The notes under the pieces are model-generated. The model worked only from the letters and a program-made list of their open reading frames with translations, made no database searches and was not told the origin of the DNA. From NCBI GenBank assembly GCA_010015585.1, contig ML975150.1: DNA of 64,000 bases; one strand, written 5' to 3'. Numbering within the stretch: the stretch's first letter is position 1; the number at the start of each line of letters is the position of its first letter. Below, piece after piece: positions 4,056 through 7,123 of this stretch. The DNA comes from Eremomyces bilateralis CBS 781.70. Taxonomy: Eukaryota. The position numbers and the translations under genes were made by a program.

Positions 4056-4721
4056 GCAAGGTTGAATGACCGCAAGTCGACCAGCGACTTTGAGTGCCTC
4101 AGGGTGCCTTTCATTCCAAGGCACTCTGCTGTAGAACAGAGGAATCACCGCGCCGCGGGCAACTTTGGGAATATAAGAGGTATATTACGCCGTCGGGCGA
4201 CATGTATGCTCTGCAAGGGGGAAAGGATTCATGGATGCCACTTGGTCTATCTGCTGGCATTAGATGGAGCGACCGTAAGATAGGTCTACTGGTGTTTTTG
4301 GTAAGAGACGAAGCATCATGTCATCACATAAACCATACCCAAGCGAATGGAATCGTCTAAGGAAGCATCAGCACTCCACATGTGGTAACGTGAACAAGAA
4401 GCCAGCAGTGACTATGCTGAATAATACGCTTATACGCGTACCTGCTGTCACTACCTTACCGTGCTTACCTCCTAGATCTTCAACGCTCAACCTCATCCAG
4501 TTCGCCCACAGTCCGCTGTCCTTCGCCACTTGATACACGGCAGATAGCACGGGTAGCACGTGATTAGTGTGGCAAGTCCGAGTATCACGTGACCCTGGAT
4601 GTTTCGTGACTGCGCTGAGATTCTTTTGACACTGCATCCACGACATTTGTCTAGTTACTTTTCGCTTTATTGAAACTCGATATTCAACGGATCCTAAGTT
4701 CATCCAAGAAATCGCTTCAAA

Positions 4722-6773
4722 ATGGCGTGGCGCAACCAAGGAATCACTGGTTCCAACAACATCCCGTTAGGAAATCGCCGCCGTTTTGGCGATGGTGATG
4801 GGCCGCAAGATGGCTTCACGCCATCGGAGACTGGGAGTCCAGCCCCAGACCTGAAGCGTGGACGCAGTCCAATTCGAGGTAAGCATCAAACAAGATGACA
4901 ACACTACTTGCGAATCCTAACTTTTATCGCAGAGTTGAACCCCGACGGCACGAAGAAGCGAAAGAAGCGAAACCGATGGGGCGATGCGACAGAGAACAAG
5001 GCCGCGGGTCTCATGGGATTGCCGACAGCTATCATGGCCAATATGACTACTGAACAGCTGGAGGCTTATATCGTCCATCTGCGCATCCAGGAGATCAGCG
5101 AGAAGCTGCGGATTAACGATGTTGTCCCAGCTGAAGGCGACAGGTGAGTGCCCGTTTTCCGTCTCATCTCCGGTAGCTAACCTCGAGCATAGATCTCCAT
5201 CCCCTCCTCCACAATACGACAACTTCGGCCGTCGCGTGAATACTCGAGAATACCGTTACCGAAAGCGTTTGGAAGATGAGCGGCACAAGCTCGTCGAGAA
5301 AGCGATGAAGATGATCCCAAACTATCATCCACCATCTGACTACAGACGGCCTACCAAGACCCAGGAGAAGGTCTATGTGCCTGTTAACGATTATCCAGAG
5401 ATTAACTTCAGTATGATTGCTAACCCTCGATTTCTAACCCATAACTACCCAATTTCTGTATCTTGTAGCTTCCATGCACCTCGTAGGGTCATGGACAAGT
5501 TGCGCTTGATTTCTCTAACTTTGCTTTCATTTGCGTCATCTTGCAGATACTAACACTTAGACTTTTTCCTACTAACAGTTGGACTACTTATCGGACCACG
5601 TGGAAATACTCTAAAAAAGATGGAAACCGAATCTGGCGCAAAGATCGCCATCCGTGGCAAAGGATCTGTCAAGGAAGGAAAAGGTCGATCTGACGCGGCT
5701 CACTCCAGCAACCAGGAAGAAGATTTGCATTGCTTAATCATGGCCGATTCGGAGGACAAGGTGATTAAGGCGAAGAAGCTCATCCATAACGTTATTGAAA
5801 CGGTACGTTACTCCTCCCTCGTTGAGACATCGAAACTGACAGGCATAGGCCGCTTCCATCCCAGAAGGACAGAACGAATTGAAGCGGAATCAACTTCGCG
5901 AACTCGCAGCCCTCAACGGTACTTTGCGAGACGATGAAAATCAGGCCTGCCAGAATTGTACGTCTCCATTTTCCATCATAGCTTTCTTTCTAACAAATTA
6001 CAGGCGGCGAGATCGGTCACCGAAAATACGACTGCCCTCAACAACGGAATTTCACCACAAATATCATCTGCCGAATCTGCGGTAATGCAGGCCACATGGC
6101 ACGAGATTGTCCCGATCGTCAACGAGGTACCAATTGGCGGAACGATGACCGAGGTCCTCGCCCAGCTGGCAGGATCGGAGCTGGAGATGCTGTGGATCGC
6201 GAATACGAATCCCTCATGCAAGAGCTGTCGGGTGGTGCCGCATCCAGCGGTGCCCAGCAAAGGATCGAGTACAATGATGAGGGTTACGGTGCTGCAGCTG
6301 GTGGCGAAAATCTCAAGCCCTGGCAACGTGGTCCAACTGGGGCTCCCGCGCCATGGCAGCAACGAGACAACGATCGCGGTGCCTCAGGATCGGCTCCCGC
6401 GCCATGGGCTGCTGGTGGAAGCGGTAATCGAACAAACGACAGCTACGGATATGGCCAGCAGCAGGGATATGGTGCCCCTCCGGCTCCATCTGGGGCTGCA
6501 CCTTGGCAGCAGGCAGCGCCTCCCGCTCAAGCTTCAGGTTACGGGTATGGATACCCTGCCGGTGGTTATGGTGCGCCTGGTGCACCTGGTGCGCCACCTG
6601 CGCCGGGCATGTATCCTGGGTATGGTGATAGTGCGGCTCCTCCACCTCCACCTCCGACTGATGCTGCTCCTCCTCCAGTAAGTAACTGACGATTGTCCAT
6701 TTTGTTTTACCATCATCTGACAAGCTCTCAGCCACCGAACGAGCAACCTCCTCCACCTCCCCCTGGCGCTTGA
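4722..6773 (+). CDS. MSL5: Branchpoint-bridging protein BBP/SF1 (KH-QUA2 domain, two CCHC zinc knuckles, Pro-rich tail); exons 4722-4878, 4933-5143, 5193-5410, 5579-5802, 5849-5957, 6004-6677, 6732-6773
   Basis: [10 protein letters not shown] (U2AF-ligand motif), [32 protein letters not shown] (KH GxxG loop), [16 protein letters not shown] (QUA2), [14 protein letters not shown] and [14 protein letters not shown] knuckles. Confidence 0.96.
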
Positions 6774-7123
6774 AGTTCCGCGCAGTTGCCCGGTCCTTAC
6801 GTGCAAGGGGTTCAGTGTCCTTCGAGACACCTCCGTGTTTCGAGGAGAGGAGAATTGAGGTCTTCACCCAGGCCTGGTTGGTGCGTGTCCGTTCGTATGC
6901 CGGGTTTTTTACCCAGGCGTTTCCTGGCGATGGTATTGAATGTATTCTAGAAAATTGCATACCTGATTTGTAGATTCATTCCAAATCTGGGCATGCATAA
7001 GTTGTGTTTCAGACTAACGTTAAAGGAAGACTATTCGACTTCCTCAGGGGCAGTAAATATCAAGACGGATTGCTGCATCCGGGGTATAAAAAGTTGATTG
7101 CCTTTTGCCTTCGACGTACACCC

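Follow-up and report, generated by a model that had tools for sequence, protein, structure and literature searches.

A conserved intron built of branch-site motifs in the fungal BBP/SF1 gene, a candidate sensor of free branchpoint-bridging protein

BBP/SF1 (branchpoint-bridging protein; Msl5) is the factor that makes the first contact with the branch site of an intron, and we know of no account of how cells set its level. A 64,000-nucleotide (nt) stretch of the Eremomyces bilateralis CBS 781.70 genome (contig ML975150.1 of assembly GCA_010015585.1; hereafter the window) raises this question, as one intron of its BBP/SF1 gene, intron 3, is crowded with copies of a motif that matches, by sequence, the binding motif of BBP itself. 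On these grounds an original prediction, made from the letters of the window, had singled out intron 3 as an array of branch-site motifs with several unproductive acceptors and proposed that it serves splicing autoregulation. We analysed the anatomy of this intron, its counterparts in related fungi, the other introns of the same genes and the available RNA. Together, these comparisons support the view that intron 3 is a special, selected regulatory element built of branch-site motifs, and that these motifs, which match the encoded protein's own binding motif, are conserved.

The host gene is a member of the BBP/SF1 (Msl5) protein family. Its seven exons (4722-4878, 4933-5143, 5193-5410, 5579-5802, 5849-5957, 6004-6677 and 6732-6774) encode a protein of 544 amino acids (aa) in which Pfam recognizes an SF1-HH domain in the N-terminal part (PF16275, E 1.4e-24 for exon 3 and 8e-13 for exon 2), a BBP-type KH domain (KH-I_KHDC4-BBP; PF22675 at 5.3e-20 and PF00013 at 1.8e-07) and, after the KH domain, a CCHC zinc knuckle (zf-CCHC; PF00098 at 4.9e-10). 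Homologues of the protein carry the source name branchpoint-bridging protein. The corresponding database protein (P0001), named a hypothetical protein of Eremomyces bilateralis CBS 781.70 by its source and a branchpoint-bridging protein in UniRef, has the same length as the 544-aa model and is 100% identical to it over the C-terminal exon used as query. In order, the introns measure 54, 49, 168, 46, 46 and 54 nt, and intron 3 cuts the KH domain at ...PEINF / IGLLIGPRG, immediately 5' of the GxxG loop. The gene and the parts of its third intron are as follows.

4722..6774, + strand: BBP/SF1 (branchpoint-bridging protein) gene, 7 exons, 544 aa, defined by the spliced open reading frame, Pfam, RNA junctions and the database protein
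5411..5578, + strand: intron 3, the candidate regulatory intron, 168 nt, phase 1, defined by an RNA junction, with a long intron at the same position in 71/75 related loci
5411..5417, + strand: suboptimal donor GTATGAT, judged from donor counts in unique long introns against control introns
5418..5445, + strand: 5' array of weak branch-site-like motifs (TGCTAAC 5418, TTCTAAC 5432, CATAAC 5440), conserved in position
5464..5504, + strand: predicted hairpin in the variable middle, enclosing the AGs at 5468, 5486 and 5499 (folding; weak evidence)
5513..5546, + strand: middle module resembling a 3' splice site, with CTCTAAC at 5513, a pyrimidine-rich AG-free tract and a CAG ending at 5546
5548..5556, + strand: main branch site, TACTAAC followed by AC, with putative branch A at 5553; the motif is conserved and its use as branch point is presumed
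5551..5553, + strand: first in-frame stop (TAA) on retention of intron 3, from translation of the retained form
5558..5560, + strand: proximal TAG, 7 nt past the branch A, at a recurrent YAG position (Y, pyrimidine)
5570..5578, + strand: terminal TACTAAC overlapping the productive acceptor (TACTAACAG), an instance of a recurrent terminal ACTAA

Within intron 3, CTAAC starts at five positions (5420, 5434, 5515, 5550 and 5572), as part of the heptamers TGCTAAC 5418, TTCTAAC 5432, CTCTAAC 5513 and TACTAAC 5548 and 5570, and is joined by CATAAC at 5440. The main TACTAAC at 5548 sits 25 nt from the productive AG. AG dinucleotides end at 5468, 5486, 5499, 5546, 5560 and 5578, and only the last of these restores the normal KH domain. 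Splicing to 5468 or 5486 would let the reading run to a TGA at 5507, the product of acceptor 5546 would end NTNT*, and acceptor 5560 would add 18 nt in frame, with NFFLLTV replacing I. The original prediction had drawn the same picture: re-reading of the sequence returned every one of its motif and AG coordinates, translation reproduced all of its isoform consequences, including that of retention, and its contrast between 168 nt and the 46-54 nt of the other five introns was accurate.

This density of motifs is not a matter of chance, since five CTAAC were reached in 0/100,000 mononucleotide shuffles of intron 3 (mean 0.21, maximum 4) and the window holds no second cluster. Its 64 kb contain 35 CTAAC on the + strand and 25 on the - strand, and intron 3 is the sole site with at least three inside 168 nt. 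Three other explanations of the intron were tried and rejected. An intron-hosted non-coding RNA (a small nucleolar RNA and the like) found no support, as an Rfam search of 5300-5700 gave 0 matches up to E = 1 and the middle of the intron is not conserved. Stepwise or recursive removal, as in a twin intron, fails because taking out 5411-5546 or 5411-5560 leaves no new GT donor, and a 14-nt micro-exon at 5469-5482 would be out of frame.

Relatives of the locus were collected as metagenome contigs matching the KH exon; 425 were confirmed, and the best 80 were kept. At 91-97% amino-acid identity, these over-represent fungi close to the query. Both exons flanking intron 3 are present in 75 of these loci, and 71 of the 75 have an intron of 137-264 nt at exactly the position and phase of intron 3. 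CTAAC was counted in 65 unique locus introns, with none in 2 introns, two copies in 1, three in 3, four in 17, five in 25 and six in 17, so that 62/65 hold three to six. On the sense strand of the loci the density of CTAAC is 25.55 per kb inside the intron vs 1.29 per kb outside; as background, use was made of the 64-kb window together with some 149 kb of sequence flanking the loci. Lineage labels were drawn from summed tblastn segments vs 69 named proteins; they are noisy through low-complexity C-termini and were used at class level only, for the higher-identity cases, few loci exceeding 90% identity. The nearest named proteins are those of Penicillium, Aspergillus, Onygenales, Coniochaeta, Fusarium, Trichoderma, Daldinia, Hyaloscypha, Mollisiaceae, Aureobasidium, Macrophomina, Cenococcum and lichen-forming Lecanoromycetes and, on these rough labels, span five Pezizomycotina classes (Eurotio-, Sordario-, Leotio-, Dothideo- and Lecanoromycetes). 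The comparison of orthologous introns that had been proposed along with the original prediction thus found both the extra CTAAC and the position of the intron kept in many Pezizomycotina lineages.

The other intron positions of the gene vary by lineage, with the intron between exons 4 and 5 missing in about 20 loci and that between exons 5 and 6 in about 50 (L001-L080). Set against this variation, the near-constant occupancy of the intron 3 position fits selection to keep intron 3. Three loci depart from the rule: one has a 97-nt intron at this position (L031, 1401-1497) and one a 52-nt intron (L039, 1446-1497), each with 0 CTAAC, and on a 36-kb contig (L058) the position has no intron. The module has therefore been lost, or was never gained, in some fungi, and a motif array relocated to another intron was not found among the other introns of these three loci. 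The short introns of L031 and L039 have ordinary GTAAGT/GTAAGC donors.

The layout of the intron was counted over 64 unique long introns, the one in the window included; the loci are related, so that these counts are not independent events. From 5' to 3', the introns open with a weak donor and 1-4 tandem CTAAC; past a variable middle come a middle CTAAC, a strong ACTAAC, a YAG and, last, a weak AAG or CAG acceptor. At the 5' end, the donor is GTATGAT in 42/64 introns and GTACGAT in 7/64, and position +6 is taken by A in 51 introns, by G in 8, by C in 5 and never by T. The first CTAAC lies at intron position +9/+10 in 62/64, and 59/64 carry 2-4 CTAAC within the first 45 nt, spaced mostly 8-9 nt. 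The copies differ in the base that precedes CTAAC: an A stands at -1 in 27/64 first 5' motifs and 5/92 later 5' motifs, vs 61/62 main motifs and 22/24 terminal motifs. The main motif is TACTAAC in 30/62 and is followed by AC in 47/62 introns (5555-5556 in the window), an extension that may lengthen pairing with the branch-site-recognition region of U2 small nuclear RNA (snRNA) beyond the usual six pairs.

Towards the 3' end, a middle CTAAC or CTAAT is present in 57/64 introns and is followed by an AG-poor pyrimidine zone (-50 to -16); it precedes the main branch site by 20-60 nt in 56 of these introns and by 118 in the one left. In 45/64 an AG of the 5546 type stands no more than 15 nt ahead of the main motif, and in 60/64 a YAG of the 5560 type lies 6-7 nt past the main branch A, probably too close for use with the main branch point. 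The productive acceptor, 20-30 nt from the branch A in 64/64, is AAG in 41/64, CAG in 23/64 and never TAG. Thus, of the multiple unproductive acceptors in the original prediction, those at 5546 and 5560 belong to recurrent types, whereas those at 5468 and 5486, like the further AG at 5499, fall in the non-conserved, hairpin-prone middle. Two further patterns at this end did not hold up: an AG 'peak' directly upstream of the main branch site proved to be about background density, the notable part being the depletion before it, and the proximal YAG has no frame bias, its distance to the productive AG being 0, 1 or 2 mod 3 in 17/27/17 introns.

Conservation follows the motifs. Pairwise identity is 0.77 over intron nt 1-22 and 0.80 over the main-site block vs 0.25 in the middle and 0.53 at third codon positions of exon 4, and because the motif blocks exceed the third codon positions they are under selection at the RNA or DNA level. 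The spacers between CTAAC units vary (cct, ctc, cc, tc, cttt), and CTAAC itself is invariant. The commonest 5' block, CTAACCCT (5420-5427 in the window), matches eight C-strand bases of a telomere repeat of the TTAGGG type exactly, which we take as coincidence; a telomere-repeat or DNA-level reading of it was rejected on account of the variable spacers beside fixed CTAAC. Retention would place an in-frame stop inside the intron in 63/64, and intron length mod 3 is spread evenly (21/23/20). In the variable middle, folding gives a mean z of -1.07, with z<0 in 55/64 and z<-2 in 11/64, the window intron having a minimum free energy of -23.3 and z = -1.48. A central hairpin is thus at most a possible part of the element, given this weak folding tendency and a sequence that is not conserved. 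The earlier claim of a special branch-site-motif intron is therefore borne out across lineages: the motif array recurs at its positions, the splice sites stay weak, and ACTAA-AG is conserved at the 3' end.

The other introns of the same genes lack these properties. Among 118 unique control introns with exact GT..AG ends, the median length is 51.5 nt (range 45-113), CTAAC occurs 0-1 times in 116/118 (maximum 2), and the acceptors are CAG in 70, TAG in 43 and AAG in 5. Control branch-to-acceptor distances have a median of 11 nt (interquartile range 9-12) and reach at least 20 in 3/105, and control donors are mostly GTAAGT, GTATGT, GTACGT and GTGAGT, all ten of the commonest hexamers ending in T or C. 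Fisher's test of intron 3 against these controls gave p values of 8e-19 for the AAG acceptor, 1.5e-43 for the distance and 1e-48 for at least three CTAAC; kinship was ignored, and because the loci are related these values overstate independence.

RNA from the window gene came from one public run (X1), in the form of contigs; their depths are only rough and unfit for ranking, and those that span a junction carry just 29-30 nt per side. The run contains 79% of sampled words of the BBP gene, about the exonic share, and its contigs over 4700-6800 splice out all six introns at the modelled GT..AG borders, including 5410->5579; because its contigs skip all six introns, X1, whose label as RNA is a guess, was treated as RNA. 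An unspliced contig (5381-5607) runs uninterrupted over intron 3 at a depth of 1345.4, and the spliced junction 5410->5579 has a depth of 1172.4; the two together account for the depth of the upstream exon contig, 2516. The depth inside the other five introns is zero by bin arithmetic, and intron 3 is the only intron with an unspliced contig among the X1 contigs listed. About half of the transcripts in the X1 sample therefore retain intron 3, and only intron 3, and a non-productive isoform with a premature stop (5551-5553) is present in RNA. The high steady-state share of this form suggests nuclear detention, or at least inefficient nonsense-mediated decay (NMD).

These data refine the original prediction with respect to the route. 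It had proposed an unproductive, stop-containing isoform, which is abundant in RNA as full intron retention, but it had derived such isoforms from internal acceptors, and X1 shows only fully spliced and fully retained forms. At the level of junctions, the productive 5410->5579 was seen, and no junction from donor 5410 to 5468, 5486, 5499, 5546 or 5560 was among the X1 contigs listed, in an assembly format that drops rare variants and isoforms. Because of this property of contigs, low-level or NMD-cleared use of alternative acceptors remains compatible with X1.

Retention of the same intron recurs in other lineages. Five short metagenome contigs are without every other intron yet include intron 3: L003, closest to lichen fungi; L006 and L064, which are 98.9% alike and 92% and 88% identical to Penicillium proteins; L024, closest to Fusarium and Trichoderma; and L065, closest to Leotiomycetes. 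Genomic relatives of L006 and L064 (L034 and L072, about 80% DNA identity) carry introns at the positions missing there, and for this reason the five contigs look like assembled transcripts with intron-3-specific retention. Intron 3 is removed, at the homologous junction, in only one transcript-like contig, which is fully spliced (L023, the fourth of the 75 loci without a long intron here); L062 is ambiguous. Use of an internal acceptor was seen in none of the complementary DNA (cDNA)-like metagenome contigs examined.

What might such an intron do? On balance we think it somewhat probable that the observed anatomy, conservation and abundant, intron-specific retention reflect negative autoregulation, in which surplus BBP fills decoys of graded affinity, blocks splicing and leaves an unspliced transcript that is prematurely terminated or held in the nucleus. 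Intron 3 would thereby measure free BBP and keep the BBP level steady. The strong branch site, TACTAAC 5548, would support productive splicing, and the remaining motifs would be decoys unable to splice productively: the weak (G/Y)CTAAC array 9-10 nt past the weak donor; the middle CTAAC, which has a pyrimidine tract and an AG of its own; and the ACTAA(C) lying over the weak productive acceptor. At low BBP, just the strong site would be occupied and the intron removed; once BBP is in surplus, the array and the site on the acceptor would be filled as well, and BBP beside U1 at the donor and on the acceptor would block cross-intron pairing or mask the acceptor, giving retention. The retained RNA, with its early in-frame stop, would probably form a nuclear reservoir or be degraded, possibly with some coupling to NMD, and less BBP would be made.

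We infer that BBP reads these motifs because the full ACTAAC stands at the branch site and the acceptor, weak versions abut the donor, too near it for branching, and both match SF1 preferences; the graded series fits the needs of a concentration sensor. Of the sites known for SF1, UACUAAC is bound most tightly, and UGCUAAC, CACUAAC and GACUAAC are bound as well (PMC3064769). As to the fate of the RNA, loss of BBP or Mud2 raises cytoplasmic pre-mRNA, which ties BBP to nuclear retention (PMC2377449), and Mud2-Bbp has been coupled to the nuclear exosome (PMC13322074). Nuclear holding by BBP would explain a stop-containing RNA at about half of steady state, away from NMD. More broadly, a branch-site decoy rheostat of this kind might set the global capacity for branch-site recognition in filamentous ascomycetes, across at least five Pezizomycotina classes, with BBP-coated unspliced RNA as a nuclear reservoir; we regard this wider proposal as plausible but short of probable.

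Several points weigh against autoregulation by BBP. CTAAC is also the site at which U2 snRNA pairs, so another factor could read the array. The terminal motif is not universal: the motif-on-acceptor end stressed by the original prediction is recurrent, but ACTAA falls inside the last 9 nt in just 38/64 introns. The three loci without the module (L031, L039, L058) indicate that it is dispensable in some fungi. RNA support for the window gene comes from a single run in contig form, with rough depths and short junction flanks, and the cDNA nature of the metagenome contigs was deduced from intron absence, with no record to state it. Finally, in intron 3 of human XPC, branch As at -4 and -24 both matter (PMC3064769), and a motif 4 nt from the acceptor can thus be functional rather than inhibitory.

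Given the double nature of CTAAC, the same device might be read by the U2 small nuclear ribonucleoprotein (snRNP), by another CUAAC-binding factor or by overall spliceosome capacity, so that retention would report general splicing load. In favour stand the AC that follows the main site in most introns, which may lengthen U2 pairing, and the conserved combination of a weak donor with a weak acceptor, which would suit a capacity-sensitive intron. We nonetheless consider this unlikely, because the device sits in the BBP gene itself with no second cluster in the window, CTAAC is concentrated inside the intron at some 25 rather than 1 per kb, and the contrast between ACTAAC and (G/Y)CTAAC falls on positions that matter to an SF1-type site. 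A different reading, that of the original prediction, is a switch in which surplus BBP activates the middle branch point and directs splicing to the acceptor at 5546 or 5560, the frame-shifted or insertion-bearing mRNA going to NMD and retention being a by-product. The recurrence of the 5546-type AG and the 5560-type YAG keeps such a switch possible, as do the middle CTAAC with its AG-poor zone and the fact that the internal acceptors of the window are all unproductive, with NMD hiding their products. We judge it quite unlikely all the same: the spliced and retained depths in X1 already sum to the exon depth, no cDNA-like contig uses an internal acceptor, and the AG density directly upstream of the main site is about background, leaving only the depletion before it to be explained. 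Moreover, fungal introns commonly have a pyrimidine tract 5' of the branch site, as Kupfer et al. reportedly described in 2004.

Should the extra motifs instead recruit scarce BBP, the intron would be privileged in splicing, with the terminal motif helping to define a distant weak acceptor. BBP bridges to the U1 snRNP, Msl5-Mud2 being associated with that particle (PMC3378887), so that donor-near sites could aid a weak donor, and the need of human XPC intron 3 for both branch As (PMC3064769) lends the idea further support. Yet intron 3 is the worst-spliced of the gene, with about half unspliced in X1 and sole retention in the five cDNA-like contigs, selection keeps both its donor and its acceptor weak, and positive feedback on an essential, abundant factor would be an unusual design; we therefore hold positive splicing to be very unlikely. 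It is highly improbable that the purpose lies in a truncated protein of about 195 aa made from the retained mRNA (the Mud2/U2AF-binding N-terminus and helix-hairpin without KH, QUA2 or zinc knuckles) and acting as a regulator or competitor. The retained form is indeed abundant, exons 1-3 carry SF1-HH and the intronic stop is near-universal, but the intron-encoded tail is not conserved, as the low identity of the middle and the even spread of lengths mod 3 attest, and what is conserved is a set of RNA motifs separated by spacers that vary. That nothing special is at work, intron 3 being a long, inefficient intron with CTAAC by chance or as mutational debris, is barely credible. Of the alternative splicing events seen in fungi, retention of introns is the most frequent according to published abstracts, but the shuffles, the fixed motif positions, the above-synonymous conservation over five classes and the 118 control introns all contradict this explanation.

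The acceptor of intron 3 has also left traces in protein databases. Several annotated BBP proteins of Aspergillus niger, A. luchuensis and Penicillium citrinum are without IGLLIG (the homologue of window 5579-5596) and have no PF00013 hit, and each of these species also has sister entries in which IGLLIG is present; the entries with gaps in this region are P0046, P0076, P0053, P0069 and P0068, and a Diplocarpon mali entry is without 17 residues there. It looks like gene predictors pick a downstream AG in exon 4 over the weak true acceptor of intron 3. Separately, three Fusarium entries (P0029, P0092 and P0118; 915-1569 aa) show BBP fused to major-facilitator transporter domains and are probably merged models of neighbouring genes.

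If negative autoregulation by BBP is correct, this would be the first case of a core, constitutive reader of a splice signal being controlled by copies of the splice signal itself. The element is compact (<270 nt) and has clear parts, and could show how the choice between splicing, retention and nuclear holding depends on the affinity of branch-site motifs and on their spacing. The splicing capacity of a fungus could also be read from the retention of intron 3 in its transcriptome, and there is a practical side, in that gene predictors stumble at this intron. BBP/SF1 autoregulation, or an intron or motif array of this kind in fungi, was not found in the full-text literature searched, from which subscription journals are mostly absent. 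Term searches did not return the topic from the available text of a review of alternative splicing in fungi (2026), a preprint on the transcriptome of Fusarium and a survey of human autoregulation; in the searchable part of a paper on SF1 and QKI (PMC13004596) autoregulation was not mentioned, and 'fung' occurred just once, in a reference title.

Related systems are nevertheless known. The closest in kind are splicing-factor genes that autoregulate through unproductive splicing, such as srp2/SRSF5, which has one unusually long retained intron at a position conserved in fungi and animals, with in-frame stops, and whose retained form is stabilized in an NMD mutant of Neurospora crassa (PMC4379411). 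Both are splicing-factor genes with a long intron of conserved position that contains stops and is retained in a sizeable share of transcripts. However, the srp2 intron sequence is described as 'not notably conserved' among Aspergillus, whereas the motif blocks of the BBP intron are conserved across classes, and srp2 encodes an SR protein, whereas BBP is the core branch-site recognizer and the motifs match the binding motif of the encoded protein. In the nuclear Gomafu/MIAT long non-coding RNA, tandem UACUAAC repeats bind SF1 and slow splicing in vitro (PMC3116199). Here too, several closely spaced branch-site motifs would bind the protein and not act as branch points. Gomafu, however, presents UACUAAC in a vertebrate non-coding exon and acts in trans, whereas the array described here lies inside an intron of the SF1/BBP gene, would act in cis and consists mostly of (G/Y)CTAAC.

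Decoys and self-binding proteins provide further parallels. Intron 4 of SF3B1 undergoes intron retention mediated by decoy exons (PMC6097662), and like it the BBP intron has conserved decoy-like splice signals, which would pair unproductively with the outer splice sites and may be needed for its retention. The SF3B1 decoys are cryptic cassette exons, bound by U2AF, in introns of >1 kb, in contrast to branch-site motifs beside the donor and on the acceptor of an intron of <270 nt, and no decoy junctions were detected at BBP intron 3 among the X1 contigs listed. Yeast RPL18B, RPL28 and RPS22B autoregulate by splicing inhibition (PMC13232506). As in these cases, a protein would attach to part of an intron of its own gene and keep that intron from being spliced, but whereas the ribosomal-protein elements are mostly structures that mimic ribosomal RNA, the BBP element mimics a splice signal. 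Finally, SF1 and QKI compete for ACUAA branch sites in mammals (PMC13004596), so that, as we propose for BBP, the outcome of splicing depends on a STAR/KH protein occupying ACUAA-type sites. In contrast to this competition between two proteins, the BBP case would involve a single protein acting on its own intron.

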